NCBI GenBank assembly: GCA_020723725.1 | Contig: DYIG01000001.1 | Location: forward strand, 1 to 36,264 | DNA: 36,264 bases | Direction: 5' to 3' | Origin: Thermaerobacter marianensis | Lineage (GTDB): Bacteria > Bacillota > Sulfobacillia > DYIH01 > DYIG01 | Part shown: positions 9,896 through 28,455 of the stretch, piece by piece | How the letters are laid out: each line of letters starts with the position of its first letter | How positions within the stretch are numbered: position 1 is the stretch's first letter | Program-made: the position numbers and the translations under genes | The notes under the pieces: model-generated | What the model saw: the letters and a program-made list of their open reading frames with translations, nothing else | Databases searched by the model: none | Told to the model about the DNA's origin: nothing

Positions 9896-12148
9896 TTACT
9901 TCCAACCCTTCCTGGTTACGCTGTGACACCTGTAGCAGGAGGACGCCATCGGGTTGAACCTCGCGAGGGCGGAGCTCACACCGAACTGAGTCCAGTACTT
10001 GGTGTCGTTGACCCAGTACTTCGGCTGGGTTTCGTAACGCGGATCGATGGCAGAGCTGCCCGGGTGAGTGGCTTCGCCATTGCTGCTATTGATGTTGGCA
10101 TTGTCAGCATCCCTGTTCCAGAGGTAGCCGGTGATGTTATCACGCGACACACCGGTGGAATCGTTCACATCGCCATTGGCGTAAGCAACCTCGATGCGCT
10201 CGGAGCCGGAGCCGTGAGGCACGTGGCAGCTCAAGCAGGTCATCATATTCTGCTGGTAGGAACCGGAGGCATCCTGTTCCAGCTGACCTTCGAGCGGGAG
10301 GATCGGATCCTGGACGCGGGTCTGGCCTACGCCCTGGCAGCTGGCGAGCTGCAGAGAATTCGGATCAGGATTACCCGCGGCATCATAACCAAACGGGTTG
10401 TTGAGGGAGTCATCGTCACCCGTACAAATGTCACCGGTTTCAGCGGCAACCGGACCATCGATGAGTTTACCCTCTTCCCAAGCGCCCATGGCTTCGGTGT
10501 TGATCGGGTGCTTGTGCTGGCCAAGGACCTTCTCCATCACAGCGGGCGACCAGTCACCATTCGGATCTTTGTAGTTGGCAAGACCCATGTTGCCGGTGCC
10601 GTAGCCATTGCTGTAGGTGAAGTAGCCGATCGGGCCAGTGCCGGAGTTGGTCTGCTGAGCAGTTTGCCAACCGGACATGTTGGTACCATCCGGATAGACA
10701 TAGTTGTCACGGGCGATGCGGGCTTCATGCCACGCGAAGGCACGGTGACAGGCGGTACAGAAGGTGGTCATACCACCCATCGGCTGTACCTCTTTACAAC
10801 GTCCGCCGGTCGGTGAGGTGCTGTCTACTACCCAAGAACCTTCCATCGCACCTTCACACGCAGCCTGAGCAGCAGCGGATGAAGCGAAAGCAACCGGGTC
10901 TTCGTAGTGCGGATCGTAGAAGATCGTCACAGAGTTACCACCAGAGAGGAACTTGGTGTACATAGCGCGACCTTCCCAGACACCACGATCGGAGCTGGCA
11001 TCGGTCTTGGAGGTATCAACTTCAGATACGCCACGGACCACGATGTTGTGGCGGTCGTTGATCACGCCGCGAAGGATACGGTAGTTCTTGGAACGGTTGT
11101 GAGGCTCGTGGCAGGAGGAGCAAACCAACCAGCTGCCCCAGTTGTAGCTGACATACTTGTAGTCGGTATCCTTCGGCTTGGCCTGGGTCGAATCCTCGAG
11201 GAGCCAGCCGCTACCAGGAGCCATCCAGATACGGGCGGAACCGCTGGCGATCTTGTCTTTCAGGCGCTGCTGGGTTTCATCCAGGTTGTCACCGGGGCTG
11301 GCGGCACGCATCACGTTGTGAGCAGAGGTGAGCTGCACACCGGAACCAGCCTTGAGGCGGTCACCGAACGGACCGGCAGCAGCATAGGCCTTGTCGGCCC
11401 AGCTATTGCCGAGGCGGACATAGCCACGGACCTCGTCGTACTTGGAACCGGTACCATCATGGCAGGTTCCGCAGAGGTCGGTAACGGTTGGACCCTTCAG
11501 GAGCTTCTTGGCCTTGGAGCTGTGGAGCCCGTGACAGGCAGTACAGGCGTTGGTGTACTCGGAGTAGTTACCGTGCCTGTTCTGCGTTGGCGGGAACGCA
11601 GCTGCCACAACATACTTGTTGAGGTTCGGATCCACGTCGGTGCTGGCGCCTACATAGTAGTAGTACTCTTCGTAAGCAGCCACGCTGGCATCATCATAGG
11701 TAACGTAGGCGTACCTATCATTAGCCCACTTATCGGTGCTCCACTCAGAGCCACAGGAGTTGAGGGTGGCTGTCTGAGTGCCACTGGCATCCTCAGAAAC
11801 ACTAACAGAACAGCTTGAGACGGCATTAAAGGAACGGCCATCATTACGCGTATGCTTATAGACAGTGTAGGTAACACTAGAACCGGTATTAGATTCAACG
11901 GGGGTAAACATTATGGTAACTTTAGACCCTGTATCGGTGCTGGAGACGATTGCTCTGGTATCATCAGGCCCGGCCTCACCGGGGACATCGCCGTTTGCAC
12001 CGGCGAACGCCGCGGAGGCAAGGAGCAGAGAACCAAGGGCTACTAGAGCGGATAGCAGGAATTTACGCATTATTAAAGGGGCACCTCCTCTAAGATTTTG
12101 CAAACTAATAAATCGAACTAACTTATGGAATGAACCACCGTTAGACAT
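9896..12148 (-). CDS. secreted hexahaem c-type cytochrome, family member Hex-A
   Basis: 750-aa ORF with six CxxCH (CTACH, CGTCH, CSSCH, CTACH, CLSCH, CYRCH). If translation starts at ATG 12070 (GGAGGTG at 12082-12090) it has a Sec signal peptide, MRKFLLSALVALGSLLLASAAFA. The ORF-track ATG at 12148 has its own GGAGGTG (12159-12167). Conserved family blocks are AAFPPTQNRHGNYSEYTNACTACHGLHSSK..LLKGPT.TDLCGTCHDGTGSKYDEVRG, CSSCHEPHN..KNYRILRG, DPILPLEG, CLSCHVPHGSGSERIEVA, ITGYLWNR and ALARFNPMASSCYRCHS. Confidence 0.9.
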   Translation of the reverse strand: MSNGGSFHKLVRFISLQNLRGGAPLIMRKFLLSALVALGSLLLASAAFAGANGDVPGEAGPDDTRAIVSSTDTGSKVTIMFTPVESNTGSSVTYTVYKHTRNDGRSFNAVSSCSVSVSEDASGTQTATLNSCGSEWSTDKWANDRYAYVTYDDASVAAYEEYYYYVGASTDVDPNLNKYVVAAAFPPTQNRHGNYSEYTNACTACHGLHSSKAKKLLKGPTVTDLCGTCHDGTGSKYDEVRGYVRLGNSWADKAYAAAGPFGDRLKAGSGVQLTSAHNVMRAASPGDNLDETQQRLKDKIASGSARIWMAPGSGWLLEDSTQAKPKDTDYKYVSYNWGSWLVCSSCHEPHNRSKNYRILRGVINDRHNIVVRGVSEVDTSKTDASSDRGVWEGRAMYTKFLSGGNSVTIFYDPHYEDPVAFASSAAAQAACEGAMEGSWVVDSTSPTGGRCKEVQPMGGMTTFCTACHRAFAWHEARIARDNYVYPDGTNMSGWQTAQQTNSGTGPIGYFTYSNGYGTGNMGLANYKDPNGDWSPAVMEKVLGQHKHPINTEAMGAWEEGKLIDGPVAAETGDICTGDDDSLNNPFGYDAAGNPDPNSLQLASCQGVGQTRVQDPILPLEGQLEQDASGSYQQNMMTCLSCHVPHGSGSERIEVAYANGDVNDSTGVSRDNITGYLWNRDADNANINSSNGEATHPGSSAIDPRYETQPKYWVNDTKYWTQFGVSSALARFNPMASSCYRCHSVTRKGWK

Positions 12149-12230
12149 TTCTCATTTTCACCTCCTCTCTGGCCTGAAGCGGCGTACCAGGCGCAAAAGA
12201 AACACAAACAAATAAATAAGAGTCGCTCTC

Positions 12231-12281
12231 TAATTAAGCAAAACGGCGAAATATATATCGAAATTTCTAGTTGCTTAATTT
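12231..12281. other. long imperfect hairpin in the Hex-A leader / divergent intergenic region
   Basis: AATTAAGCAA (12232-12241) pairs with TTGCTTAATT (12271-12280). An inner GAAAT/ATTTC stem is formed by 12248-12252 and 12263-12267. It lies between the predicted Hex-A promoter and the Hex-A start codons. Confidence 0.35.
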
Positions 12282-12322
12282 AGGCACAAAAATTGGACAG
12301 AAATACCTAGTCCTCAAATCTC

Positions 12323-12350: not shown

Positions 12351-12377
12351 GGTATTCTGTGGATAACGACCTTTTAA

Positions 12378-12491: not shown

Positions 12492-14501
12492 ATGTTTTAT
12501 TCTCTATTGCTTAAGAGCAAGAGTCCAAAGAAACTTCTGACCCGCCAAGCATCCATCCTATTTTGGTTTGGCGTCTTTTGTCTTTATATCATTTTCATTT
12601 CTTCTGACAACTCATTGGCATTGAGCGCCAGCCCCGGATTCGCAGGGGAACTCGGACCTGTGGACACAAAGGCGATTGTCAACCGGACCAGTGGAGGGAG
12701 CCTGGCGGTGAAGGTATTGTTCACCCCTGATAAAGGCGCCGGTAACTATTCTGTCTATAGATATGCCCTCTACGGGGCCGACAACCCCTCGAGCCCCGCG
12801 AATATATGGAAGCGATCCTTTGACCAGCAGTCGGCTTGCACTGTTACCGGTGTTGGGTCTGACACAGATCTAGGGGTAGTTACTTACGTGTATCTGGATA
12901 ACGGATGCACCTCATCCGGCTGGTCTGTGGATGACCAGTATAAATATGTGGTCTTTACGGATCCCAATGTTGAGGCATATAACGAGTACTATTACTATGT
13001 GGCATATGAAACTGACCCAACTGCAGAACCCATCCCTCAGCCCGTATTCAACAACGGGAACTGGGTCCCATCGGGCCTGCATGACCTGAATAGGTATGTG
13101 GTGGCAGCAGCCTTTCCACCGACCCAGACACGCCATGGCAACTATTCGGAATATACCAATGCCTGCAATGCATGCCACGGTCTGCACAGCTCAAAGCACG
13201 TAAAACTGCTAAAGGGGCCAACGAGTACTGACCTTTGCGGGACCTGTCACGATGGTACAGGATCAAAATACGATGAAGTGCGTGGCAGGGTCCGGAAAAG
13301 CAATAGCTGGGCTGATTCAGAGTATGCTGCCGCAGGACCCTTTGGTAACCGGCTAAAACACAACAGCGGTATCAGCACAACTTCGGCTCACAACGTCACC
13401 CGGGTCAAGTGGGAGTTTGTGCAGAATAACAATGAGATGGGCGACATGCTGGATGACTCCGGGGCCTTTGATTTCTCAGCGCGGATCTGGCAGGCGCCAG
13501 GTTATTACTATGGCGGGGATTCCGACTCCCCGAAAAAATGGCTCTCCTGCATCTCTTGCCATGAACCCCATAATAAATATAAGAATTACAGGCTCTTAAA
13601 AGGCGAGATCAACGGTCGCAAGAACATCATTGTGCGAGGAGTCAGTGCTACCAACGTTTATTCCGGCGACGGCAACCCCTATGAGAGAGGGGAATGGGAA
13701 AAACGATACATGTACACCAAGTTCCTTTCAGGTGGAAACAGCACCGACAGCACCGTAAGCGGCATGGGTGGCGTTGTTTCCTTCTGCACCGCGTGTCACT
13801 CTGCCTTTGCCGTGGGAGCCAGTTCACAGTCTGATCCCAGCTTGGGGATATATGTCGCCCCCACAAGCGACAACTTCAATTGCAGCGGCGGGGATTGCAC
13901 GAAGAGTCAGGACCAGGTTGCCTCAGACGCCGAACGGATCCCACCCGGGACCCACAAGCACCCTGTCGGGGTGGAGGCAGCCTATGCCCCTGCGGTAGAT
14001 GGGCCGCTCAACGAATTTGGTGAAGTCTGCACCATGAATAAACAGACTGCGTTAAGCGATGACTGCAAGCAAGGTAGGGTAATCGACCCGATACTGCCGC
14101 TGGAAGGCCAGAAGGAATCAAAATCTGGCCCTACGGCGTATCGTCGCAACCTCGTGATGTGCTTGAGCTGCCATGTGCCACATGGTTCCGGTTCAGAACG
14201 ACTTGAAGTAGCATGGAAAAACAATAACCTCAATGACACTCAAAATGGACTTCGTGATGCTATCACCGGCTACCTGTGGAACCGGAACGTTCCCGACCAG
14301 AGCGCCATGGGGAGCCAGGAATACAAGCACCCTGATTCGCCAGGGCAGGCCGACCCGCAGTTTGGCACAGGGTCACAGGAACCCAGGTTCTGGGTTGCGA
14401 ACTCACCCTACTGGACGCAATACGGCTTCAGTTCCGCATTGTCACGGTTCAATCCAATGGCCTCCGCATGTTACCGCTGCCACAGCAGGACTAAAAAGTA
14501 A
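12492..14501 (+). CDS. secreted hexahaem c-type cytochrome, family member Hex-B (only plus-strand member)
   Basis: 669 aa with six CxxCH (CNACH, CGTCH, CISCH, CTACH, CLSCH, CYRCH). It has an N-terminal hydrophobic signal/anchor (ILFWFGVFCLYIIFISS..LALSA). The family blocks match Hex-A/C (AAFPPTQTRHGNYSEYTNACNACHGLHSSKHVKLLKGPTSTDLCGTCHDGTGSKYDEVRG; ..ALSRFNPMASACYRCHSRTKK-stop). Confidence 0.9.
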   Translation: MFYSLLLKSKSPKKLLTRQASILFWFGVFCLYIIFISSDNSLALSASPGFAGELGPVDTKAIVNRTSGGSLAVKVLFTPDKGAGNYSVYRYALYGADNPSSPANIWKRSFDQQSACTVTGVGSDTDLGVVTYVYLDNGCTSSGWSVDDQYKYVVFTDPNVEAYNEYYYYVAYETDPTAEPIPQPVFNNGNWVPSGLHDLNRYVVAAAFPPTQTRHGNYSEYTNACNACHGLHSSKHVKLLKGPTSTDLCGTCHDGTGSKYDEVRGRVRKSNSWADSEYAAAGPFGNRLKHNSGISTTSAHNVTRVKWEFVQNNNEMGDMLDDSGAFDFSARIWQAPGYYYGGDSDSPKKWLSCISCHEPHNKYKNYRLLKGEINGRKNIIVRGVSATNVYSGDGNPYERGEWEKRYMYTKFLSGGNSTDSTVSGMGGVVSFCTACHSAFAVGASSQSDPSLGIYVAPTSDNFNCSGGDCTKSQDQVASDAERIPPGTHKHPVGVEAAYAPAVDGPLNEFGEVCTMNKQTALSDDCKQGRVIDPILPLEGQKESKSGPTAYRRNLVMCLSCHVPHGSGSERLEVAWKNNNLNDTQNGLRDAITGYLWNRNVPDQSAMGSQEYKHPDSPGQADPQFGTGSQEPRFWVANSPYWTQYGFSSALSRFNPMASACYRCHSRTKK

Positions 14502-14531: not shown

Positions 14532-15701
14532 CTACCCGTTTTTACGGTCTTCCTGGCTGCTCTCGGAAAAGGGGTCAGTGTTTCTTATAGGAGAGGCGGC
14601 GGTGTATAATTTAACGACGTTTCTGCCTGAATGCTTAGCGTTATATAGAGCGGCATCGGCACGCTCAACCAACTCTCCAACGGTGGATGCATCGTCCGGC
14701 ATAACGGCTATGCCGGCGGAAATGGTGAGGATCCCATTTGGCTGGGACTCCTGTCCCTTAAAGGGGTGTTCTTCAACTGCCTCGCGGATCCGTTCGGCGA
14801 CTCCGTATGCTTCAGCCCGCGTGGTTCGAGGGAGAATAATGCCGAATTCCTCCCCCCCGTACCGGCAGACAATATCCGTTTCGCGGCACTTTTCCACCAT
14901 GATACCGGTGATCTCGCGTAAAAGCCGGTCGCCCTCTCTGTGACCATGGGTGTCGTTATACCGCTTGAAGTGGTCGATATCGACCATAATAACGGCAAGG
15001 GACGTGTTTTTATCTTTGGCTTCCTTTAATAACTCCTCGAGCCGTTCGTAGAAGTAACGGTTGTTGTAGGCGGTTGTCAGGGAGTCCGTGTAAGAAAGAC
15101 GGGCCAATAACTCATTGGTGGAGGCCAATTCCTTGGCCGACGACTCCAATTCGCGCTTCATGATAAGCAGCTTCTCGTGCAACTGAACCATTGTGTTGAA
15201 CCGATAGTACCCAAAGACATAAATGGCGCTGAACACCACATGTATCCAAAAGGTCCCCATGTGAGGCGAACCGAGAAGCTCACGCCAGGCAATTACCGTC
15301 CCAATACCGTAAACGACCAAACACCAAACACTTGCCAATACGAGGTGACGAGTGCGGGATGTCAGGGAGTAAACCGACAGTACCTGCGCGGCAGGCATAA
15401 GCCAGAAGTCTTCCATTTCAGCAATACCCTTGACCATCCATAAAACAGTAACGACGGTATCCAATATAAAAGATACCGCCGTTCCATAACCAATGACATA
15501 CTTCTTCTGAAGGCAATACTTGGTTATAAAAAGGCTATACGCTGCTGTAACGAACAGCCAGGCCAATGTTATTGTTAAGTAGTACCCTGTGGCCAGTGCA
15601 GCACGGCCTCCGGAAGAGACCACCACCGGTAACAGGGCAATGCCAACGCCAATCCACTTCCATATTAATGCAGTACGGACGTCGGTTACTTCCAAAGCCA
15701 T
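14532..15701 (-). CDS. membrane-bound diguanylate cyclase (GGDEF domain, GGEEF active site, RxxD I-site)
   Basis: 389 aa. About 5-6 N-terminal hydrophobic helices are followed by a coiled-coil-like linker. The GGDEF core reads LTTAYNNRYF...IMVDIDHFKRYNDTHGH.EGD...RETDIVCRYGGEEFGIILP...SAGIA...ADAALYNAKHSGRN. Confidence 0.9.
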   Translation of the reverse strand: MALEVTDVRTALIWKWIGVGIALLPVVVSSGGRAALATGYYLTITLAWLFVTAAYSLFITKYCLQKKYVIGYGTAVSFILDTVVTVLWMVKGIAEMEDFWLMPAAQVLSVYSLTSRTRHLVLASVWCLVVYGIGTVIAWRELLGSPHMGTFWIHVVFSAIYVFGYYRFNTMVQLHEKLLIMKRELESSAKELASTNELLARLSYTDSLTTAYNNRYFYERLEELLKEAKDKNTSLAVIMVDIDHFKRYNDTHGHREGDRLLREITGIMVEKCRETDIVCRYGGEEFGIILPRTTRAEAYGVAERIREAVEEHPFKGQESQPNGILTISAGIAVMPDDASTVGELVERADAALYNAKHSGRNVVKLYTAASPIRNTDPFSESSQEDRKNG

Positions 15702-15781: not shown

Positions 15782-16801
15782 CTAGAACTTTTTAATTTTA
15801 GCTTTTTCTCTCAAATCGGCTATATACTTATCCCAGGCCGCCATCTTTTTCTGTTCCAGGATACCATTCGTTATCCTGTCCCTCACCTCTTCAAAGGAGA
15901 ATTCCTTTGCGGGCTTCAACTCTTCTACTTTAATAATGTGGTAACCAACCGCACTCTGGACCAGACCACTGGTCTGCCCGGCTTCAAGAGCGAAGGCAGT
16001 GTCCTCCACTTCCTTTACTATCTGCCCGGACCCTTTATAGAACGGTCCCATCAACTCACCCGGGGGAGGGCCCTGAATACCGCTGCTCCCACTGACCCCT
16101 GAATGGGTGGAATCCTGAGGTATGTTGGGTTTTTCGTTCTGGGGGGCATACTTTTTGGCGACTTCGACAAAGTCAGCCCCTCCCTTGAGTTCATCTAGGG
16201 CTCTCCTGGCTTCCTCTTCTGTGGACACCCGTATTTCGCGGTATTTAACAGACTCAGGCTCACGCATCTGGGCCTTATTGGCCTCGTAGTACTGCCTGGC
16301 CTCGTTCGGATCGAGCTTAATTCCCCCGGTGACCTTCTCATGAAGGCTACGGATTATCATTTCGTCCTTGACCATAGCCTTGAGATCTTCATCAGTGATA
16401 CCCGCTTGTTTCAACGCCATGTTAAGCCGTTGTACCGAACCGCCGTAGGCCCTATCCCTCATGATCGACTTCAACCGAGTGGTCTCTTTGCTTACATCCT
16501 CATCTTTTATCCTGATGCCCTGTTTCTTGGCCTCGGCAAGGGCAACATATTCGTCAATCATTTGTTCAGCCATGGCCGAACGGGCAGGACCCATCTCACT
16601 TCGGCTGAACTGATGCCCGTAGGCGATCTGAAACAAAGCGAGTCTCTGCTCGATCTGGCGATCGGTAATCTTCTTATAATTCACACTGGCGACCGGGTTG
16701 CCAGCGCTCTTCTTACCACCACCGTTTCCACCGCAAGCAGTCGTGACAAGAGCCACAGAAAGGGTTAAAACAAAAAATAGAGCCAGTTTATTCTTCCGCA
16801 A
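15782..16801 (-). CDS. parvulin-type peptidyl-prolyl isomerase, lipoprotein-like, PrsA/SurA-like (PPIase-B)
   Basis: 339 aa. The signal peptide ends in ..ALVTTACGG, which is lipobox-like. The parvulin core reads FVEVAKKYAP...GELMGPFYKGSGQIVKEVEDTAFALEAGQTSGLVQSAVGYHIIKV. It is collinear with PPIase-A. Confidence 0.85.
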   Translation of the reverse strand: MRKNKLALFFVLTLSVALVTTACGGNGGGKKSAGNPVASVNYKKITDRQIEQRLALFQIAYGHQFSRSEMGPARSAMAEQMIDEYVALAEAKKQGIRIKDEDVSKETTRLKSIMRDRAYGGSVQRLNMALKQAGITDEDLKAMVKDEMIIRSLHEKVTGGIKLDPNEARQYYEANKAQMREPESVKYREIRVSTEEEARRALDELKGGADFVEVAKKYAPQNEKPNIPQDSTHSGVSGSSGIQGPPPGELMGPFYKGSGQIVKEVEDTAFALEAGQTSGLVQSAVGYHIIKVEELKPAKEFSFEEVRDRITNGILEQKKMAAWDKYIADLREKAKIKKF

Positions 16802-16903: not shown

Positions 16904-17890
16904 TTAATATGACCAGATGGAATTTCTGTTATTCTCGCGATCGGCAATGTAAATGCGCTGGCCATCAACTACTATGCCGTTGGGGAAGTTCAACTCGCCG
17001 GTGCCCAAACCACGCACACCAAAGGAAAATAGTTCCTGGCCCGCCTGGTTGAACACCAGCACCTTGTGGGCAAATGTATCGGCAACGTAGATACGGCCCC
17101 GTCCGTCTGCATATATCCCCCTAGGCAACACCAACCCGGAAACAACCAACCGCACCCGTCCGTTGCTGTCAAACTGCTGAATACGTTCATTGTTGCTATC
17201 CGCAACCCAGACTCCACCCAAAGGGTCGGCCGTGACGCTGAATGGGTAGCTCATCAGGCCCGGACCATCACCTGGTCCCCCTATGAACCTGACAAACCGG
17301 TCTTTTTCATCGAAGACCATTATTTGATGGTTAACTGTTGCGACATACGAGTTGTCTTTCCCATCCTGACCCAAACCGAGCGGACCCACTTGCAGAGCCG
17401 GATCTTTGGCAGGGTCGGGTATGACAGCCTTAAACTGACCGTCCAAAGTGTAGATGTTAATACGGCTGTTGAGCAGGTCGGCGACGTAGACGTGGTTCTT
17501 GCGGATTATTACTGACGTGGGAAAATAAAGGTCCCCCTCCCCACGCCCCAGTTTGCCAAAACGCGTCACCCACTTGCCATCCTGGTCGAAGACCTGAATC
17601 TGATTGTTTTCGCTGTCAGCGACGTAGATGCGCCCATCGGGCGACACAGCCACACCCAGCGGGCCACGGAGCGGCGAACTGGGCGGGCCATAAATCTCAT
17701 TGACGGGCTGAGGGGGCACACCCATGTTTTCCCTTAGATCACTAATGTACGCGTCCAATCCAGGCGGGGATTGCTGCTCTTTATAATAGTAAAGCATTAT
17801 AACACCCGTAATCAGAACGAGAACCAAAGCGATGTTCAGGGTAGCCCCCAGAGTCAGCCCTCTGGAACCGCTTCCGCCTTTCCCCCTCAC
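16904..17890 (-). CDS. membrane-anchored NHL-repeat beta-propeller protein (NHL-B)
   Basis: 328 aa. The GTG start overlaps the TPR-B stop (GTGA). It has a TM helix (LNIALVLVLITGVIMLYYY). NHL units include IYGPPSSPLRGPLGVAVSPDGRIYVADSENNQIQVFD. Confidence 0.85.
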   Translation of the reverse strand: MRGKGGSGSRGLTLGATLNIALVLVLITGVIMLYYYKEQQSPPGLDAYISDLRENMGVPPQPVNEIYGPPSSPLRGPLGVAVSPDGRIYVADSENNQIQVFDQDGKWVTRFGKLGRGEGDLYFPTSVIIRKNHVYVADLLNSRINIYTLDGQFKAVIPDPAKDPALQVGPLGLGQDGKDNSYVATVNHQIMVFDEKDRFVRFIGGPGDGPGLMSYPFSVTADPLGGVWVADSNNERIQQFDSNGRVRLVVSGLVLPRGIYADGRGRIYVADTFAHKVLVFNQAGQELFSFGVRGLGTGELNFPNGIVVDGQRIYIADRENNRNSIWSY

Positions 17891-18817: not shown

Positions 18818-20956
18818 TTAGTTAGTTGTACGGCTGTGACACCTATAGCAAGCAGAGGCAAACGGGTTGAACCTCGCGAGCGCAGAACTGAAGCCGAACT
18901 GCGTCCAATAGGGCGAAGTATCGACGAACAGATCGGGGCGCTGAGACCCTGTGCCAAACTGCGGGCTAACTTGACCGGGCGAGCTCGGGTGCTGGTATTC
19001 GCTGCTACCCATGAAGCTTTGGTTATTGACATCACGGTTCCAGAGGTAACCGGTGATGTTATCACGTGAACCGCCTGTTGTGTCATTCAGCCCGTTGTTC
19101 TTCCATGCCACCTCGATCCGCTCAGAGCCGGAACCATGCGGTACATGGCAGCTCAGGCAAACGACCTTGTTCTTCCAATACCCCTGCTTGTCGGAACCAC
19201 TACCGTCTACACCTTCAAGCGGGAGAATCGGGTCCATAACGCGACCCTGCTTACAACCGGATTTTACGGAGTTAGTAGAACTGTTCCAAACACCATATAC
19301 ATAGCCAGTTATGCTGCCAGTGCTATCGGCAGGATTCGGCGTACAAATGTCACCGCCACTGCTAATCTGACCCTCGATTACAGGAGCCAAGTAGGCCTCG
19401 ACATCGACCGGGTGCTTGTGAGCACCGGACGGGACCCTGTCTGAACCTGGATCAGTGCCAGGGTATGGGTCGGTACAATTAGCACCACTTCCACAATCGA
19501 AGTTAGTGCTCTTTGGTGCGGCAAAGATGATGCTGGGATCGGTAATGCTCATAGTGGAATTGGCGCGCGGCTCGACGGCAAACCCAACGTGGCACGCGGT
19601 ACAGAAGGAGACGATACCGCCCATGGCTCCACCACGACCAGCCGGGTTATTGGTGAAATTGTTATTGGTATCGCTACCACCGCTCAGGTACTTGGTGTAC
19701 ATGTAGCGCATCTGCCAATCGCCACGCTCATTGATATTGGCGTCATTACTATAAACATTGGTGGCACTGACACCGCGGACTACAATGTTCTTCCTGTCAT
19801 TGAACTCGCCGCGCAGGAGACGGTAGTTCTTATTCTTGTTATGCGGTTCGTGACAGTTGATGCAACCTAGCCACCTCTTGGAATCATCACCGTTACGGGA
19901 ATAGAATCCAGGCGCCTGCCAGATGCGAGCGGAATTTGCAACAACAGAACTCGTGTTAAGGCTATCGCCTTGCGGGTTATCGTTCGTCACCAAGTCAGAA
20001 CGCACCCTCATAACGTTGTGAACAGAGGTGGTCTGGACACCGGAACCTTGCTTTAAGCGGTCACCGAAGGGACCAGCGGAAGCAAAGGCCCTATTGCTCC
20101 AGGTCGGTCCAGTCCGGACATAGCCACGAACCTCATCGTATTTAGACCCGGTACCGTCGTGACAGGTACCACAGAGGTCGGTGCTAGTCGGAGCCTTGAG
20201 GAGCTTCACATGCTTGGAACTGTGGAGACCATGACAGGCATTACAAGCATTGGTGTACTCTGAGTAGTTCCCGTGCCTTGTTTGAATCGGCGGGAAGGCA
20301 GGTGCTACGACATACTTATTAAGATCAATCCCACTTGAATTACTGGGGAAACCACCGCTGTAACCACTATCAGAGTCATCCACGAAATAATAGTACTCTT
20401 TATAAGCCTCTACGTTTCTATCAGAAAATTTCACATAATTATAGGTATTATCCGTTCCCCAAGAGTACTTGGTATTATCCACCGAGTTGCAAGTACCCAG
20501 GGACATGCTTGTAACAACGCCAAGCTGGGTATCCACGCTGGCAGTCACTTGGCATTCCCCGACTTTGTCGAACGTCCTTTTCCATAGGATGCTGTCAAAA
20601 GGAGTCGACGCTCCGGCCAGGTTATACCTATACACAGCGTAGGTCTTGGTGCCGTTTTTGGGAGTAAACATAACGACTACCTCGGAGTCGTAAACACCAT
20701 TGGTTACAGTCCCTAAGGTATTTACCACTGCCTTGGTGTCATATGGCCCGCTTTGCCCTGCATAACCGACAGCTAATGCAGCGGGAGCGATAATAAGTAG
20801 GGCTAGGAGAATAAAGCTAAATATAATAGCTGTCTTCTTAGATTTCACGAACAGGACACCTCCTCGAATATCTGTGAGGCCATTAGTCCCTTTTCGCGTG
20901 TTCATCCGTTTTCCACCCCCTTTCCCGCTGTTTTTAGGGAGTAAATGGGACAGCAT
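18818..20956 (-). CDS. secreted hexahaem c-type cytochrome, family member Hex-C
   Basis: 712-aa ORF with six CxxCH (CNACH, CGTCH, CINCH, CTACH, CLSCH, CYRCH). The likely start is GTG 20848 (GAGGAGGTG at 20857-20865), giving the signal peptide (M)KSKKTAIIFSFILLALLIIAPAALA. Alternative starts are ATG 20905 and ATG 20956. The family blocks are as in Hex-A/B. Confidence 0.9.
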   Translation of the reverse strand: MLSHLLPKNSGKGGGKRMNTRKGTNGLTDIRGGVLFVKSKKTAIIFSFILLALLIIAPAALAVGYAGQSGPYDTKAVVNTLGTVTNGVYDSEVVVMFTPKNGTKTYAVYRYNLAGASTPFDSILWKRTFDKVGECQVTASVDTQLGVVTSMSLGTCNSVDNTKYSWGTDNTYNYVKFSDRNVEAYKEYYYFVDDSDSGYSGGFPSNSSGIDLNKYVVAPAFPPIQTRHGNYSEYTNACNACHGLHSSKHVKLLKAPTSTDLCGTCHDGTGSKYDEVRGYVRTGPTWSNRAFASAGPFGDRLKQGSGVQTTSVHNVMRVRSDLVTNDNPQGDSLNTSSVVANSARIWQAPGFYSRNGDDSKRWLGCINCHEPHNKNKNYRLLRGEFNDRKNIVVRGVSATNVYSNDANINERGDWQMRYMYTKYLSGGSDTNNNFTNNPAGRGGAMGGIVSFCTACHVGFAVEPRANSTMSITDPSIIFAAPKSTNFDCGSGANCTDPYPGTDPGSDRVPSGAHKHPVDVEAYLAPVIEGQISSGGDICTPNPADSTGSITGYVYGVWNSSTNSVKSGCKQGRVMDPILPLEGVDGSGSDKQGYWKNKVVCLSCHVPHGSGSERIEVAWKNNGLNDTTGGSRDNITGYLWNRDVNNQSFMGSSEYQHPSSPGQVSPQFGTGSQRPDLFVDTSPYWTQFGFSSALARFNPFASACYRCHSRTTN

Positions 20957-21113: not shown

Positions 21114-22811
21114 CTAGTACGCAGGCCTCCAATAAACCCAATCCTGAACGGTGTGGCAACCTGTTTGACAACCCGATTCCGGCCAGTTTATGGCCTGAAT
21201 CGCAGGGCCCGTTGGGTCAGTCCACAGCAACCTCGGCCACTGCGAGGATCCGTGGGTTGTATGGCAGTTGCGGCAGCTATTGCCCATTACACCCACATGG
21301 TACCTGTGAAGGGGCTGTTGGTAGACCTCCCCTGTAACGTCGCCCCAGAATCGGCTTAGCGCCATGGGGGCAGGACCCGGTATCTCCAACGAAGAATAGA
21401 CGGACAAGTAAACCGAGGAGTTGTGGCAGTTAAAGCAAATCTCGTCACCGGTCATTGGCCCAGTAACCGGATAGGGGGCCGAAAGGATCCAACTGTTTTG
21501 AGACCCATGGGGCGAGGCGCCCGTGACACCGCTCTTGTGGCAGTCGGAGCACATCGTCCGGCTTGTATATGACCAGTTATTACCGTTGCGGTCTGTCCCT
21601 GTAAAAGCGTTTGGCCGTATGAAGTTATTCTGACCCGCCGCCTCCACAGGGTGGTAGCTAGGATTGGCCGGATTGAATTCCAGGGCTTTGTCACTGGCGC
21701 CGGGCTTGTTCCAGTACCCAGAATGGCACTTGTAACAGATCCTGTACTCAAAACCATCCGCCGGGAAGTTTAATGCCCCTGACGCCGACCATGTGTACCA
21801 AGGGGTTTGTGTCCGGTCAACCGTTACATGAGATACGTTACGAGTAGGGTCCGCTTTGGTTGCTGAATGGGGGTCATGACAATCCACACATTCCGAGTGG
21901 CGCCGGTCGTTGGCAGGCAGATCTGCAAGGGTCTCTGTGTCCAGATGGCGTCCAGCAACTGTCTTTACCGGGTGCGACGAGGCAAGGTTCAAGTCAGAGT
22001 CCACGTTTTGATGGCAGGACAAGCAGCCGTTCTCTTCCTGGGACTTGGTTAGACGATAGAAGGTATCCTTGCCGTGAGTATCGTGACAGGAGTTGCAGGC
22101 CATTCCCTGCCCTTGCCCCACCTGTGAAAGAGCATGAGACGAAGTTTCCCAATCAGGCCTTGATATAACTAACTTAGAGCCTGAACCATCATGACAGGTG
22201 AAACAAACACCTGCTAAGTCTTGCACTTTAACTAGACCAACTTCAACAGAGCTATGCAGGCCATGGCAAACGGTACAGACCTTCGTGTTTTCAGTATAAC
22301 CACCGTGGGGATTCTGCCTGGGAGGAAACGCACTGGCAACCGAGTACCCCTCAGGGTTATTGTTAAATCCCTCGGGGCCTGTTACTAAATAAGATACTTC
22401 CTTATCGTTCACGGGGTTTGTCTTATCCTCGAGAACTAAGTAGTTTGAACCTACAGTTTCTTGATGCCATACAAAATTAGCATTGATGGTAGAAAGCGAA
22501 CTAACAGCCCACTCTCCACCAGACCACGTAATCTCCCCTGTCCCCACCCAGTTGTAGGCTAAAGGATCAGAGGTGTCACGTTTGTAAACCTGATAAACAA
22601 CCTGGGGCTCTATTGGTAGGATATAGACCTTTAATACATTATTTAGGCCAACCTGTATCCTCGGCTGGACCGCATCAACCTCATAGGTTGTAAGGGCAAA
22701 CAAAGCAAAACCAACCACTAAGGCAAGGATAAATGCCCATCCATACAACCTAAAACCCCTGATGTATTCGCTAAGTTTTCGAACAGAGGGCTCGTTCTCG
22801 AATCGCCTCAC
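21114..22811 (-). CDS. multihaem c-type cytochrome, 9 CxxCH plus one C-terminal CxxxCH
   Basis: 565 aa with a GTG start and an N-terminal TM/signal helix (WAFILALVVGFALFALTTY). After a beta-rich N-domain it has the family dihaem module (SAFPPRQNPHGGYTENTKVCTVCHGLHSS..CFTCHDGSGSK). Then come CNSCH, CLSCH, CVDCH, CYKCH, CSDCH, CFNCH and CRNCH, and finally CQTGCH 12 residues from the C-terminus. The C-terminal half is collinear with the end of the 865-aa protein. Confidence 0.9.
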   Translation of the reverse strand: MRRFENEPSVRKLSEYIRGFRLYGWAFILALVVGFALFALTTYEVDAVQPRIQVGLNNVLKVYILPIEPQVVYQVYKRDTSDPLAYNWVGTGEITWSGGEWAVSSLSTINANFVWHQETVGSNYLVLEDKTNPVNDKEVSYLVTGPEGFNNNPEGYSVASAFPPRQNPHGGYTENTKVCTVCHGLHSSVEVGLVKVQDLAGVCFTCHDGSGSKLVISRPDWETSSHALSQVGQGQGMACNSCHDTHGKDTFYRLTKSQEENGCLSCHQNVDSDLNLASSHPVKTVAGRHLDTETLADLPANDRRHSECVDCHDPHSATKADPTRNVSHVTVDRTQTPWYTWSASGALNFPADGFEYRICYKCHSGYWNKPGASDKALEFNPANPSYHPVEAAGQNNFIRPNAFTGTDRNGNNWSYTSRTMCSDCHKSGVTGASPHGSQNSWILSAPYPVTGPMTGDEICFNCHNSSVYLSVYSSLEIPGPAPMALSRFWGDVTGEVYQQPLHRYHVGVMGNSCRNCHTTHGSSQWPRLLWTDPTGPAIQAINWPESGCQTGCHTVQDWVYWRPAY

Positions 22812-23006: not shown

Positions 23007-23990
23007 CTACCTACCCCAAACGGATATCCGCGCATTTTCCCTATCAATGATATAGAGATTGCCAGATGGCCCCATTGCGATCCCGTTGGGGAAGTTGAAT
23101 TGTCCACTTTCCAAACCGCGCTCTCCAAATTGGAACAGTAGCGAGAACTGGTTACCGTCAATCCCCACAACTGTGTGTCTTAGAACATCCACTACGTAAA
23201 CCCGATCCTTGCTGTCTATAACTATACCGCGCGGTAACACCATATCATCCGCAATAGCCTTTATAGCTTTTCCGGTATTAGGGTCTAACACCTGAACCAT
23301 AGCGTTATTACTGTCTGATACCCAAAGTCTCCCCTGGGAATCAAATGCCAGCCCGTAAGGGTAGTTGAATTGGCCAGCCTGTCGGCCTGCGCGTCCTATC
23401 GTTTTAACGTAGTTGTCATTTTTGTCGAATACTAAGACCTTATGGTCCAAAACAGCAACATAAAGGTTCCCATCTTTATCCTGTGCAAGTGAAAGCGGAC
23501 CGACCTCTAAGTCTTTATGCTTATTCGGATCCGGTATTTGGCCGATGTATTTCCCGTCCATGCCTAAAATTTGAACCCTATTGTTACGCATATCGGCAAC
23601 ATAGAGTCTATTGTTACGAATTAGAATATCTATGGGATAGTTAAATTGAACTTTGTCGCCACCCGTCTTACCAAACCGAGCTACCCAACGACCATCAGAA
23701 TCAAACACCTGAATCTGATTATTGCCAGTATCTGCCACGTAGATCTTCCCGTCAGACCCAACCTCGATACCTAGCGGGGCTTTAAGGGGAGAACTGGGTG
23801 GCCCGTATATATCCATCTTATGGACCGGGGGCTGATTAGAGGTTTCCCTGAAGATCTTTACTACATTGGTTACCGGCTCTGGCGGCCTGTTTTGGACATA
23901 GAAAATTACAAAACCTAGGGCGGTCAATAACGCCACAGCTAGACTTATGTTAATGGCCGTTCCCAGTTTAAATCCCTTAGACTGACGCAT
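23007..23990 (-). CDS. membrane-anchored NHL-repeat beta-propeller protein (NHL-C)
   Basis: 327 aa. The ATG lies 9 nt after GGGGGAAAC. It has a TM helix (INISLAVALLTALGFVIFYV). NHL units include IYGPPSSPLKAPLGIEVGSDGKIYVADTGNNQIQVFD. Confidence 0.85.
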   Translation of the reverse strand: MRQSKGFKLGTAINISLAVALLTALGFVIFYVQNRPPEPVTNVVKIFRETSNQPPVHKMDIYGPPSSPLKAPLGIEVGSDGKIYVADTGNNQIQVFDSDGRWVARFGKTGGDKVQFNYPIDILIRNNRLYVADMRNNRVQILGMDGKYIGQIPDPNKHKDLEVGPLSLAQDKDGNLYVAVLDHKVLVFDKNDNYVKTIGRAGRQAGQFNYPYGLAFDSQGRLWVSDSNNAMVQVLDPNTGKAIKAIADDMVLPRGIVIDSKDRVYVVDVLRHTVVGIDGNQFSLLFQFGERGLESGQFNFPNGIAMGPSGNLYIIDRENARISVWGR

Positions 23991-24007: not shown

Positions 24008-24775
24008 CTACTTCTTTATATTTTCCTGAAATGCAGGGCTCGTTGAATGAACCTGCCGTTCCCCAAGTGCGCCTGACGGCATTTGAGGGAGATCAGATTC
24101 CTTTAAACCATTGTTCAATAATGCTTTTCTTGCTGCCTCATAAGATGGATCCAGTTCCACAGCCTTTTTATAGCTGGCTATTGCCTTGCTTTTCTGGCCT
24201 TTCTTCTCGTAAATCGAGCCCAAGAGGTAGTGAACATCTGAATAAGTAGGATCAATATTCTTGATAATATGGTCCAGTGTCTTAATAGCTAAATCATTTT
24301 TCCCTGATTCAGCATAGGTTATAGCCAATTGATAGTTAGCCAATATATGATTTGGAAAGTCTTTTGCCAACTGCGTTAAAATCTTCTCTGCCTGCGAATA
24401 ATCCTTTTTCTTTAGATAAAGGATTCCAAGGAAATATCTAGCCATTGGGTCATTCTTTTCGATTTGGAGTGCTTTTTTTAAATACTTTTCAGCCTCAATA
24501 AAATTACCTTCAGCCAAATAATTGGACCCTAACCCCACAAGGCTATCTTTATCATTTGGGTTGTGTTTTAGATTATATTGATATTGAGCCTTTTCAATCT
24601 CAATACGACTAGGTGAACGGTTTTCTTCCCAGAAGAACTTATAGCCGACTACAATTCCCAGAATGGCTACGACAAGAAAGCTACCAATAATCATTGCCCA
24701 TGCAACGGCCGGGGATATAGTCCTTTCCTGATGGTTAGGGCTTTTTAGTTGAGTTTGTTTATCCACTATCAACAT
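24008..24775 (-). CDS. membrane-anchored TPR-repeat protein (TPR-C)
   Basis: 255 aa. A TM helix (AWAMIIGSFLVVAILGIVVGYKFFW) is followed by TPR units. The exact start is ambiguous (ATG 24775 is only 2 nt after AAGGAGG; GTG is three codons later). Confidence 0.8.
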   Translation of the reverse strand: MLIVDKQTQLKSPNHQERTISPAVAWAMIIGSFLVVAILGIVVGYKFFWEENRSPSRIEIEKAQYQYNLKHNPNDKDSLVGLGSNYLAEGNFIEAEKYLKKALQIEKNDPMARYFLGILYLKKKDYSQAEKILTQLAKDFPNHILANYQLAITYAESGKNDLAIKTLDHIIKNIDPTYSDVHYLLGSIYEKKGQKSKAIASYKKAVELDPSYEAARKALLNNGLKESDLPQMPSGALGERQVHSTSPAFQENIKK

Positions 24776-24958: not shown

Positions 24959-24990
24959 TTTTAGTTAATGCTTTAACTCTCGAATATATG

Positions 24991-26739
24991 CTATTTCGTG
25001 CTGTGACAACGATAACAGGCGGACGCGAACGGTTGGAACCTACCGAGTGCAGTGCTACCGCGGAGTGCATCGCCAGCAGCATCAAAGCGGTCATAAACGT
25101 TATCACTATTATTATCGCCGTTGATTAGATAAGCGTCATTAAGACGGCGAGTATAGCTAGGATCAGTCGCATCGTAGGTCCCATTCAGATTCCCATTGGC
25201 ATAAGCAACCTCGACCTTATGGGTAGACCTAGTACCATGCGGAACATGGCAGGTTATGCAAACCACCTTATTCCCGTTATATGTGGTCTGGGTCCCTTCC
25301 AAGGGTACATATTTCTGAGCTGCAGCATCGCGACCCGCAGCTTCAACATCCATGACTCTGGCCTGATTGGTGCTAGAGCCAAGCGGATCGATATTGAAGC
25401 GCCCTCCACCTTGAGTAACCACGCGATCAGCAGTCATTTCCATCATATGCCGCTTATGGCCCCAAGTCCCGTCATTCGGCGGAACCTGAGTTTGCGTCGT
25501 ACCATCATCGGTAGTTGTAAACTCCCTATGACAAGCAGTACAAAAAGCGGTTACACCCTTAGACCCACTCGCCGTGGCAGAAAGATACTTACTAAGCATC
25601 TTGGAATTAGGAGTGTTGAGATCTATCTCCGCAACGCCCCTTACTTTTACCCCTGTCCTATCTGCTACACTCATACCATAGTCGCCACTGGTAAGAATGT
25701 CTCCACGCAGTAGCCGATAGTTCTTGAACTTATTGTGCGGTTCATGACATGTTGCACAGGTAAGGGCATCATTAGCAGTGCTACCCCCGTTCTTTGGATC
25801 AGTAAGGTTCGTAGAACCCGGCGCTGACCAAACATAAGCTGCATTGGACCCTACAGAACCACTTGCCGCACCCGCACCAAGGGTTAAGCCAATTCGATAC
25901 ACATTATGAACGGAGGTGGCGTCACCACCAATCGTAGTGTTTGGATTACCAAATTGGGATCCAAAAGGACCAGCAGCAGCGGTAGTATAGGAACCCCAAG
26001 TTGCACCTGTGCGTACTATACCGTTAATCTCATCGTACTTAGAACCCGACCCATCGTGACAGGTGACACAAAGGTCGGTCTGAGTAGCAGCCTTCAAGAG
26101 CTTACCAAGACCAGAAAGGGTACTCACGGAACTATGCAGGCCGTGACAGGCTGTACAAGCGTTAGTGTACTCACTGTAGGAACCATGCCGGGTTTGGGCC
26201 GGAGGGAAGGCACCTACAACCGTATAAAGATCAACCTGGGTTTCTTCGGCTGCCGGAGTAGCCGTTTGAGCATATTCGGCAACAAGATAGTAATATTCCT
26301 CGTAATCTGTAATCGGAGTAGCGTCGTTTGCGGCATCCGTGTAAATTACATACCCATATTGATCAGTGGACCACCCCGCCGGAGTACCTTGAATAACTGG
26401 TGTTCCTCCAGTAGTTTGAACGACCGCCGAACTCTCAAGCACAAATTTACGGAGGTCATCCTTGTCATGTCGATAAACAGCATACTTTTGCGTGGCGTTA
26501 TTAGTGGGAGTAAATATAATTTGAATATTACTCCCGTAGGTTGTACCAACAACGTTGGTCCTTGTGTCCGTTGGATGCGCAGCGAAAGCCGCTCCAGCGA
26601 AAAGCAACGTACCAAGCATTGCGGTAATAAGGGCAGAAACCTTCTTATTAAAACTATTAGCTGCTTTTTTCGTTAATATATTTAGACCAACCACTTTTTC
26701 ACCTCCTGAAATTAGTCGGCTTATGTCCCCTAATTTCAT
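24991..26739 (-). CDS. secreted hexahaem c-type cytochrome, family member Hex-D
   Basis: 582-aa ORF with six CxxCH (CTACH, CVTCH, CATCH, CTACH, CITCH, CYRCH). The likely start is GTG 26694 (AGGAGGTG at 26700-26708). The upstream in-frame ATG 26739 also has a GGAGGTG (26744-26750). The signal peptide is ..KKVSALITAMLGTLLFAGAAFA. It has no Cys outside the haem motifs. Confidence 0.9.
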   Translation of the reverse strand: MKLGDISRLISGGEKVVGLNILTKKAANSFNKKVSALITAMLGTLLFAGAAFAAHPTDTRTNVVGTTYGSNIQIIFTPTNNATQKYAVYRHDKDDLRKFVLESSAVVQTTGGTPVIQGTPAGWSTDQYGYVIYTDAANDATPITDYEEYYYLVAEYAQTATPAAEETQVDLYTVVGAFPPAQTRHGSYSEYTNACTACHGLHSSVSTLSGLGKLLKAATQTDLCVTCHDGSGSKYDEINGIVRTGATWGSYTTAAAGPFGSQFGNPNTTIGGDATSVHNVYRIGLTLGAGAASGSVGSNAAYVWSAPGSTNLTDPKNGGSTANDALTCATCHEPHNKFKNYRLLRGDILTSGDYGMSVADRTGVKVRGVAEIDLNTPNSKMLSKYLSATASGSKGVTAFCTACHREFTTTDDGTTQTQVPPNDGTWGHKRHMMEMTADRVVTQGGGRFNIDPLGSSTNQARVMDVEAAGRDAAAQKYVPLEGTQTTYNGNKVVCITCHVPHGTRSTHKVEVAYANGNLNGTYDATDPSYTRRLNDAYLINGDNNSDNVYDRFDAAGDALRGSTALGRFQPFASACYRCHSTK

Positions 26740-26866
26740 AGGGCACCTCCTTTCTCGGACGGGGAGTTATAGCCTTACCATCTATATGCCACCCGGTTTT
26801 AATCGGGCGAGCAGGCAACGGAACCAAAATAAGCAATATTTCTGAAAAACAAGACCACTGATGGTA

Positions 26867-26895
26867 ATTGTAAGATGGAAACCCGGTTTTGACAA
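26867..26895 (-). promoter_or_regulatory. sigma-A-type promoter candidate for Hex-D
   Basis: The minus strand reads TTGTCA (26895-26890) - 17 nt - TACAAT (26872-26867). The spacer contains the palindrome AAACC-G-GGTTT. Confidence 0.55.
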
Positions 26896-26994
26896 GACTT
26901 TTCACCATTTACCTAACTAAATAGGGCCAAATTTATTCGTAGAATAGCTAGCTATTTTTTACGTTTTCCGCTGTTGAGAGAGTGAAAATTACTA

Positions 26995-28455
26995 TTATTT
27001 CTGGTGGCAGTCCTGGCAGACGGCGGAATTCGAGGCTCGTTTCAGGGCGCTCGAACCCGTGATGCCCGCTAAGGCTTCACGTGAGTCGGTGTAGCCTGTT
27101 GTGGGGTCGATTTGGGCGTTTTCAGTGCCATTGGCCGCCCCGTTAAAATTGGCTACCGCCTCGGTGCCGCCACGGGTGGTGCCGTGGGCCAGGTGGCAGG
27201 TAAGGCAGATCATGATGTTCTGGTTGTACTGGTCGCCTGTGTGCGGCCCTTCAAGGGGCAGGGTGGTCGTGAGGGGCCGGGAGTCCTCGAAGGGGAGGTT
27301 TGCTCCGGGGTCCCAGGACATGCCGTCGTAACGCACATCGGCGTAGCTCGCGGGGCTGATGCCCACCGGGTGACGGTGGGTTCCGGGCACGCCGGGGATA
27401 GTCTTGTCGACACTGCCCGGACGGGTATCGCTGTAATAGACATGACACGTCACGCAGAAGTCGTTCATTCCATATATATATTGGGTTACGGAGACGGCGT
27501 CGCTGCGGTCGGGGGCCGTCCAGCTAACAGAGGTAAAGGCGCGCACGCGGGCCTGGGCACCGTTGAGGACACCGCGCAGAGAACGGAAGTTGGTGAACTT
27601 GTCGTGGGCGTCGTGACACGAGGTGCAGCCGAACTCCTCCTTCCAGAGACCGGTCAAGGCTGCGACCGCGATGGTGCCGCTCCCCGGCGCGTCCTTCACA
27701 AACACACCACTCATGTCGTGTACGGACGTGGTGTCCACCTGGGCCAGGTTGGAGAGGTGCTTGCCGAAAGGCCCCGCAGGGGCTTCGGTGTGGGTCATCC
27801 AGCTGTCCGAGACGCGAACCCGCCCGTTGGCTTCATCGTACCTGCTGCCGGTCCCGTCGTGGCAGGTCATACACAGGTCCTCGATGGTCGGACCCTTCAG
27901 GAGCTTGGGATGGCTCGACGAGTGCAGTCCGTGGCAGGTGTGGCAAGAGGCGTTGTTTTCGTTATAACTGCCATGCCGGCTCGGGGTGGGCGGGTAGGCG
28001 GCCACGACCTTGTAGTCCTGCAAACGACCTGTGAAGTCCCCCTCTACAACGAGGTAATAGTACTCCTTGAAATCCTCCACGTTCACGTCGGAGAAGACGA
28101 GCATATTCGGGAAAAGCTCATCGTTGTCCGCCCAGGCGCCATCAGGGATAACGGTGCTAAGGACCAGGCGACCGCCAGCATCCGTAGTGGCCCAGGCAAT
28201 ACGGGAGAGATCCCGGCCATCTTCATAGGCGTGTCGATAGACGGAGTAGGTGACATCCGGCCTGGGGGTGAAAGCCAGACGGACCTTGCCTGAGGTTGCG
28301 AAAACCTTGATTTCCTGGGGGCCGAGATAGGAGGTGTCGAGTGCTGCGGCATAGCTGGACAGCAAAAGGGAAGCCGCACCGGTTACAGCAAGACCGGCAA
28401 GAATAAACGCTACGACCCCTACCCAAAGCCTCCGAATCACTTCAAATTCCCCCAA
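26995..28455 (-). CDS. secreted hexahaem c-type cytochrome, minimal family member Hex-E
   Basis: 486 aa. The ORF-track start is TTG 28455, with a GTG 5 codons later as an alternative. It has six CxxCH (CHTCH, CMTCH, CTSCH, CVTCH, CLTCH, CQDCH) and a signal/anchor helix (LWVGVVAFILAGLAVTGAASLLL). The family blocks are retained (AAYPPTPSRHGSYNENNASCHTCHGLHSSSHPKLLKGPTIEDLCMTCHDGTGSRYDE; LPLEG; last haem motif 2 residues from the C-terminus). Confidence 0.85.
   Translation of the reverse strand: MGEFEVIRRLWVGVVAFILAGLAVTGAASLLLSSYAAALDTSYLGPQEIKVFATSGKVRLAFTPRPDVTYSVYRHAYEDGRDLSRIAWATTDAGGRLVLSTVIPDGAWADNDELFPNMLVFSDVNVEDFKEYYYLVVEGDFTGRLQDYKVVAAYPPTPSRHGSYNENNASCHTCHGLHSSSHPKLLKGPTIEDLCMTCHDGTGSRYDEANGRVRVSDSWMTHTEAPAGPFGKHLSNLAQVDTTSVHDMSGVFVKDAPGSGTIAVAALTGLWKEEFGCTSCHDAHDKFTNFRSLRGVLNGAQARVRAFTSVSWTAPDRSDAVSVTQYIYGMNDFCVTCHVYYSDTRPGSVDKTIPGVPGTHRHPVGISPASYADVRYDGMSWDPGANLPFEDSRPLTTTLPLEGPHTGDQYNQNIMICLTCHLAHGTTRGGTEAVANFNGAANGTENAQIDPTTGYTDSREALAGITGSSALKRASNSAVCQDCHQK

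Follow-up and report, generated by a model that had tools for sequence, protein, structure and literature searches.

Five OmcS-family hexahaem cytochromes of Thermaerobacter marianensis as promising but unproven candidates for a haem wire across a thick cell wall

Five hexahaem cytochrome genes in one island

We analysed a stretch of 36,264 nt from Thermaerobacter marianensis (DYIG01000001.1 of assembly GCA_020723725.1, positions 1-36,264 of the forward strand), referred to below as the window. It carries an island of multihaem cytochrome genes, and this work concerns five of them, Hex-A to Hex-E. From their sequences, the products were assigned as secreted hexahaem c-type cytochromes of the family of OmcS, the filament-forming cytochrome of Geobacter sulfurreducens. 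We regard them as promising candidates, still unproven, for haem wires across a thick cell wall.

A sequence-only reading of this DNA had described five open reading frames (ORFs), and their coordinates and lengths agreed with ours (Table 1). Each protein contained exactly six CxxCH motifs, and all motifs fell in common alignment columns, consistent with the fixed order of six haem sites in that reading. No CX3-4CH motif was found in any of the five. Hex-B to Hex-E were 36-51% identical to Hex-A in the alignment, with the six motifs in shared columns, and pairwise BLAST comparison of the five paralogues gave E = 1e-50 to 0, far past chance. Haem density was low, as had been noted, with 81-125 residues per haem compared to 35-38 in the neighbouring 11- and 12-haem proteins. 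One N-terminal hydrophobic segment was present in each Hex, in line with the proposed signal peptide. In agreement with the earlier reading, a second transmembrane segment and an LPxTG-like signal were absent from all five, and no Pfam domain for wall binding was matched.

The last haem motif was followed by only 8, 5, 5, 3 and 2 aa in Hex-A to Hex-E, as the claim of a terminal haem implied. The first haem motif was also present, and its earlier wording was inexact; R-H-G-x-Y-x-E-x(3,4)-C-x-x-C-H-G-L-H-S-S described it better. In Hex-E, the haem motifs started at C171, C195, C277, C334, C417 and C480, and the conserved distal histidines were H161, H178, H246, H284, H362 and H424. Three extra Cys pairs were conserved in Hex-A to Hex-C and missing from Hex-D and Hex-E (in Hex-A, C113/C132, C431/C451 and C575/C604). 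These pairs probably form disulfides that steady the N-domain and two insertions.

Table 1. Genes of the cytochrome island in the window
Feature	Position	Strand	Description
Hex-A	9896-12148	-	750 aa; signal peptide, Ig-like N-domain, OmcS-type six-haem core, large insertions
Hex-B	12492-14501	+	669 aa; architecture as Hex-A; sole Hex on the + strand; divergent from Hex-A
Hex-C	18818-20956	-	712 aa; 55% identity to Hex-B
Hex-D	24991-26739	-	582 aa; zero Cys outside haem motifs
Hex-E	26995-28455	-	486 aa; most compact paralogue; structure modelled with AF2
TPR1	7889-8635	-	N-terminal membrane anchor and extracytoplasmic TPR; above Pfam TPR_CcmH_CycH cut-off
TPR2	17887-18687	-	TPR1 paralogue, 48% identity; 4-nt overlap with NHL2
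TPR3	24008-24775	-	paralogue, 38-41% identity
NHL1	6893-7858	-	membrane-anchored six-bladed NHL beta-propeller
NHL2	16904-17890	-	paralogue, 55% to NHL1
NHL3	23007-23990	-	paralogue, 44-52%
PPI1	8684-9607	-	PrsA/SurA-like PpiC-type prolyl isomerase lipoprotein, lipobox ...VSGC
PPI2	15782-16801	-	second PrsA/SurA-like prolyl isomerase lipoprotein, 33% to PPI1
9-haem cytochrome (plus one C-x3-CH)	21114-22811	-	Hex-like N-domain, then OmcS-type haem-1/2 module
15-haem cytochrome (plus one C-x3-CH)	28525-31122	-	Big_1 Ig-like domain, OmcS-type haem-1/2 module
11-haem cytochrome	31262-32413	-	probable relay
12-haem membrane-anchored cytochrome	33061-34413	-	homologous to Thermincola ImdcA/PdcA
GGDEF diguanylate cyclase	14532-15701	-	multi-pass membrane protein; between Hex-B and PPI2-NHL2-TPR2

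Homology to OmcS and conservation of the haem ligands

The sequence-only reading had compared the Hex proteins to OmcS by analogy. Profile search and hhalign showed true homology along the entire length of OmcS. A profile of the five Hex sequences, as that reading had proposed, matched one protein among all PDB sequences, G. sulfurreducens OmcS, with E=3.9e-5. A hidden Markov model (HMM) of the family was built from 57 sequences, and OmcS was its sole real match in the PDB (E=6.4e-18). A single alignment to this profile covered OmcS residues 7-406 of 407. hhalign of the Hex family against OmcS gave 99.4% probability and E=6.8e-22 over 317 aligned columns, and the identity between Hex and OmcS was only about 21%. 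The OmcS sequence used was 100% identical to chain A of 6EF8. At E<=1, the profile retrieved none of OmcE, OmcZ and the archaeal tetrahaem filaments from the PDB; these are polymerising multihaem cytochromes, as is proposed here for Hex, but they have no sequence relationship to Hex. Pfam and NCBIfam scans of the Hex proteins gave no family name, and only the doubled-CxxCH unit at haems 1-2 was recognised (Pfam Paired_CXXCH_1).

Haem ligands were compared in an alignment of OmcS, the five Hex proteins and 15 relatives (21 sequences) from Bacillota, Chloroflexota, Actinomycetota, Deinococcota, Myxococcota and other phyla. The 12 haem Cys and the six proximal His were invariant, including in OmcS. 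Exactly six other His (OmcS H2, H16, H110, H147, H257 and H335) were kept in 20-21 of the 21 sequences, and the remaining five OmcS His were unconserved. This distal set included the His three residues past haem motif 1 (CxxCHxxH). In the OmcS filament, 12 His serve as axial ligands, 11 of them within the subunit and one, on haem 5, from the adjacent subunit (Filman 2019). Since the conserved six plus six His match these 12 ligands, the alignment indicated that the Hex proteins keep the complete OmcS haem-ligand set, including the trans-ligand candidates. The trans ligand on haem 5 is most likely His16 of OmcS, which is equivalent to the last H of CxxCH-G-L-H and to H178 in Hex-E.

The same comparison bears on the C-terminal haem, which had been put forward as an argument for stacking. 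OmcS ends in CNKCHAKD, 3 residues beyond haem 6. This meant that a haem at the C-terminus was an inherited trait of the OmcS family and not special to this locus. The feature was real, and as an argument for stacking it was weaker than claimed.

The ligands were also informative about a catalytic role. A multihaem enzyme, such as a reductase with an open haem site, would fit the high residue-to-haem ratio, which has been remarked on in the literature for HAO. However, each of the six haems had a conserved distal His, with no CxxCK motif and no absent ligand, and Pfam, NCBIfam and the PDB gave zero enzyme-family matches. With all six distal His conserved, a catalytic role was considered extremely improbable and was rejected.

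N-terminal domain, insertions and predicted structure

Prediction of the monomer structure had been suggested in the sequence-only reading, and it was performed for Hex-E using AlphaFold2 (AF2). The model had a mean predicted local distance difference test (pLDDT) of 81.7 and a predicted template modelling score (pTM) of 0.83. Residues 49-154 formed an all-beta domain with pLDDT >90. When the full model was searched with Foldseek, the only matches were Ig-like and fell on this N-domain, and they were weak matches to Ig V domains (E ~2e-4, TM-score 0.35-0.47, root-mean-square deviation 5-7 Å). No Pfam match was obtained for the Hex N-domain. The earlier description of a beta-rich, Cys-poor and Fn3-like domain was partly retained: it was beta-rich, and it was best read as a generic Ig-like sandwich for which Fn3 was not demonstrable. 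In addition, it was not Cys-free, because Hex-A to Hex-C carry one Cys pair there. The conserved mature N-terminus was also real. It was the first strand of this domain and marked a domain boundary instead of an interface motif.

Ahead of haem 1, the Hex proteins carry an Ig-like domain of some 110 aa that OmcS lacks, and overall they are 80-340 residues longer than OmcS. The N-terminal Ig-like beta-sandwich and the large insertions are new in Hex relative to OmcS. The Ig-like domain joins the core about 10 residues upstream of the segment with H2 and H16, which is the presumed interface. The core of Hex-E was loop-rich, and AF2 confidence was lowest around haem 1 and haem 6. In the model, these segments were weakly compatible with ends that need a partner.

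The wider six-haem family

The family is sizeable: at thresholds of E<=1e-3, 1e-10 and 1e-30, an exhaustive profile search gave 3181, 1166 and 219 representative clusters, respectively. Most members were hexahaem. Among 199 family proteins gathered, 143 had six haems, and CxxCHxxH was found at haem 1 in 141 of these 143. The two ends of the 143 six-haem relatives were not alike. The tail past haem 6 had a median length of 6 aa and reached 59 aa at the longest, and N-terminal additions extended to 1146 aa and included Fn3, FlgD-Ig, BNR-propeller and NHL-propeller domains. From the sequences, this asymmetry fits a constrained C-terminal end, as in the packing of haem 6 in OmcS, together with a free, outward N-terminus. 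A purely intramolecular constraint would fit it too.

The nearest relatives were from Clostridiales and Thermaerobacter metagenome-assembled genomes (MAGs) in a scan of one genome per species. An HMM of the window's own N-domain was narrow and recognised only the closest relatives. The broader spread of the N-domain was therefore judged by the length ahead of haem 1 and by profile coverage.

Two further observations were made in the family. In P0073, P0074, P0078 and P0049, the additions were Fn3, FlgD-Ig or BNR/Ycf48-like propeller domains; additions stood at the N-terminus in every case and not once at the C-terminus. In several phyla, OmcS-like hexahaem genes had very large multihaem cytochromes (24-44 CxxCH) next to them, at L008:14532-20975 (a Thermincola ferriacetica MAG), at L042:5375-8947 and in loci L024, L066, L077 and L078. 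They recall the 26-haem OscI (GSU2495) of the Geobacter osc operon.

TPR, NHL and prolyl isomerase companion genes

Dedicated assembly genes had been proposed for the island, and a real conserved companion set was found. It comprised three paralogous pairs of TPR and NHL genes and two PrsA/SurA-like prolyl isomerases (Table 1). The TPR proteins scored 49, 46 and 36 bits with Pfam TPR_CcmH_CycH against a cut-off of 42, so that two of three passed. All three also matched NrfG weakly and had a common G-Y-(R/K)-F-(F/Y)-W motif directly past the membrane anchor. These matches suggested that TPR1-TPR3 may be apocytochrome chaperones. A fourth, distant TPR protein (32364-33011, - strand; 22-25% identical to TPR1-3) was encoded between the 11- and 12-haem genes, and its ORF overlaps the start of the 11-haem ORF.

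HMMs of the companion proteins, built from the window, were run on 79 loci of the same scan, and 75 six-haem relatives were counted. An NHL gene was found within 7 kb on the same strand for 63 of the 75. A TPR gene was near 49, all from Bacillota, Chloroflexota, Actinomycetota or Deinococcota, and the usual order was TPR-NHL-hexahaem. In three relatives (P0035, P0038 and P0075), the NHL propeller was fused N-terminally to the hexahaem core, which provides Rosetta-stone evidence of direct partnership. In six diderm loci, larger SurA-like peptidyl-prolyl isomerases (PPIases, about 550-620 aa) were encoded at a distance of 4-7 kb from the hexahaem gene.

Geobacter offers a parallel. GSU2505, beside omcS, encodes an NHL-repeat protein that has been linked to anode reduction, and it has been suggested that OmcS assembly or expression needs this protein. 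An adjacent NHL-repeat gene is common to OmcS and Hex, with three such genes in the window, and this comparison suggests that the partnership seen beside omcS is an ancient and conserved one. For OmcZ wires, a prolyl isomerase is necessary. The osc (omcS-companion) operon (Shen et al. 2025) is described in citing papers with proposed roles in folding (OscH), secretion (OscE/F/G) and morphology (OscD). The osc operon and the Hex island are alike in placing dedicated folding and assembly genes beside an OmcS-type cytochrome, and the size of OscH (548 aa) fits the larger PPIases of the six diderm loci. The osc operon differs in that outer-membrane secretion by OscE/F/G would lack a role in a monoderm.

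A possible haem wire through the cell wall

Based on the above results, we consider that the Hex proteins are OmcS-family subunits matured by the companion proteins, and that at least some of them stack into a haem chain that crosses the wall. We give this reading a slightly better than even chance. In the proposed mechanism, Hex would be exported by the Sec pathway, and six bis-His haems would then be attached outside the membrane. Folding and handling would be carried out by the membrane-anchored TPR protein, acting like an apocytochrome chaperone, by the NHL propeller and by the PrsA-like prolyl isomerase. Some Hex would then stack head to tail in the manner of OmcS. The C-terminal haem 6 would lie against haem 1 of the next subunit, and an N-terminal His, most likely that of CxxCH-G-L-H, would complete haem 5 of the adjacent subunit. 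Electrons would enter the resulting insulated haem chain from the ImdcA-like 12-haem membrane cytochrome and cross the wall along it to reach acceptors outside, and the Ig-like domains would decorate the exterior of the filament. Of this picture, the sequences show the family membership, the kept ligands, the domain layout and the conserved gene companions, and from these we infer polymerisation, trans ligation, the helper roles, the wall location and the monoderm host.

Several points weigh against this reading. OmcS is the only one of four OmcS-family paralogues of G. sulfurreducens known to form filaments, and a wire cannot be deduced from belonging to the family. The five Hex paralogues are only about 30-55% identical to one another. 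The Ig-like domain could hinder stacking, and so could the insertions of 100-250 aa. A core-only AF2 model (pLDDT 74.7) gave nothing at E<1 in Foldseek, OmcS included, and the same non-recovery has been reported for OmcS itself. The monoderm, Bacillota-like nature of the host is itself only probable, taken from the nearest relatives, the PrsA-type lipoproteins and the rimP-nusA-ylxR-infB-rbfA operon. Finally, the identity of the trans ligand as His16 reportedly comes from a 2019 structural study of OmcS, and other accounts of the filament state only that this ligand is donated by the adjacent subunit.

In the main rival reading, the Hex proteins belong to the OmcS family without polymerising. 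As monomers or small oligomers, they would serve as electron carriers or terminal reductases held at the membrane, in the wall or in the S-layer. Docking to the wall, to partners or to minerals would fall to the Ig-like domain, and the paralogues would be tuned to differing acceptors. The single Geobacter wire among four paralogues, the missing structural match to the OmcS filament subunit and the bulk of the N-domain and insertions next to the presumed interface are all in favour of this account. The AF2 monomer was also confident alone, and the NHL, Fn3 and BNR propeller fusions of the relatives suggest surface-display proteins. However, the candidate trans ligand was invariant, and its motif at haem 1 was nearly universal in the six-haem relatives. 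C-terminal extensions were strongly avoided in the family. The core was loop-rich with low haem density, and in OmcS such a core wraps and insulates the chain. In addition, the Thermincola relative CwcA was insoluble when expressed by itself. We regard Hex without polymerisation as rather unlikely, though a serious alternative.

OmcS and CwcA are among the known systems closest to Hex. OmcS (GSU2504, PDB 6EF8/6NEF) and Hex are alike in six CxxCH motifs in the same order, six distal His, haem 6 near the C-terminus and a loop-rich core. Three additional Cys pairs set Hex-A to Hex-C apart from OmcS, and five Hex paralogues lie in one island. The Hex helpers differ as well, being membrane-anchored TPR and NHL proteins with a PrsA-type lipoprotein, and the host is probably monoderm.

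The second system is CwcA of Thermincola (TherJR_1122 / Tfer_0075), which matches the hexahaem cell-wall cytochrome proposal mentioned in the sequence-only reading. From a homology model at 18% identity and its insolubility, it was proposed in 2021 as an OmcS-like polymer across the peptidoglycan, and this wire is itself a homology model only. The idea of a wall-spanning OmcS-like wire was thus already published and is not new here. CwcA and Hex are both hexahaem OmcS homologues accompanied by an ImdcA-type membrane cytochrome, from a Gram-positive host for CwcA and a probably monoderm one for Hex. CwcA presumably lacks the N-domain, because it was modelled over nearly its full length on the 407-aa OmcS. 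We looked for CwcA in the fetched Thermincola loci by its primer-derived termini (EEPYY...) and a nearby ImdcA, and no match was obtained. Hex-type genes behind TPR-NHL were found in the Thermincola loci L008, L027 and L046.

No experiment is known to have revealed a cytochrome wire in a thick-walled (monoderm) bacterium, and the passage of respiratory electrons through a wall of 20-80 nm has so far been answered only by the CwcA homology model. Across monoderm phyla, members of the OmcS family that keep every haem ligand are widespread. There they are accompanied by the conserved TPR-NHL gene pair, sometimes fused to the cytochrome, and in one lineage the cytochromes have multiplied to five decorated paralogues, alongside a helper module present three times. 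What these results contribute is a TPR-NHL partnership that spans phyla and a set of experimental targets; the principle itself is not new. Gram-positive wire assembly could be tested in cultured Thermincola, Desulfosporosinus and Phosphitispora sp. TUW77, with defined His residues and helper genes as targets.

Other cytochromes and genes in the island

The rest of the island supports a role in electron export, as judged from the 12-, 11-, 9- and 15-haem proteins. The 12-haem ORF was 27% identical to ImdcA over 307 aa (E=2e-20) and also matched PdcA (E=2.5e-10). Because of this homology, the island mirrors the export chain proposed for Thermincola. The 12-haem cytochrome is the probable electron input from the membrane, and the 11-haem cytochrome is a probable relay.

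The 9- and 15-haem proteins shared features with each other and with Hex. The C-terminal region of about 330 aa of the 15-haem protein was 37% identical to the 9-haem protein, and both ended in an atypical C-x3-CH (CQTGCH / CTAGCH) and ...PAY. An OmcS-type N-module (P..HG.Y...CxxCHxxH, then CxxCHDGxGS) opened 9-15-haem neighbours in the window, at L009:9757-11916, L028:1566-3467 and L032:9560-11734, and in P0060. From these sequences, the 9-haem protein is possibly a partner, a cap or a terminal reductase, and both proteins could be caps or adaptors at a filament end.

This raised a mixed assembly, in which the Hex paralogues would co-polymerise, or the 9- and 15-haem proteins would sit at a filament end as its cap, base or terminal reductase, or both, perhaps supplying the His lacking at the terminal haem 5. 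According to a review, the terminal OmcS subunit needs either a five-coordinate haem 5 or a partner. The N-module with the RHG and CxxCHxxH histidines, common to the 9- and 15-haem proteins here and to 9- to 11-haem genes adjoining hexahaem genes in L009, L028, L032 and P0060, would be consistent with such a partner. However, the argument is made purely from sequence, and the module may reflect common two-haem ancestry, as Pfam Paired_CXXCH_1 is widespread. We consider a mixed assembly improbable.

An extension of the stacked Hex wire was also considered. The TPR and NHL pair with the PrsA-like isomerase would be a monoderm-type machinery for the assembly and anchoring of OmcS-family wires in Bacillota, Chloroflexota and Actinomycetota. 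This island would form several distinct Ig-decorated wires, and the 9- and 15-haem adaptors would plug into the wire ends through the OmcS-type N-module and so complete them. This proposal is speculative and unlikely as a whole. If it were true, it would describe a modular multi-wire system for electron export through a thick wall.

No porin-like genes were evident near the Hex genes in the window. The position of the GGDEF cyclase hints at control of the cluster by cyclic di-GMP. A 210-aa lipoprotein without a family match (6226-6858, - strand) lay directly downstream of NHL1. The left end of the window (629-6074, - strand) was occupied by the rimP-nusA-ylxR-infB-rbfA operon, in which IF2 had a long Gly/Pro-rich N-terminal region.

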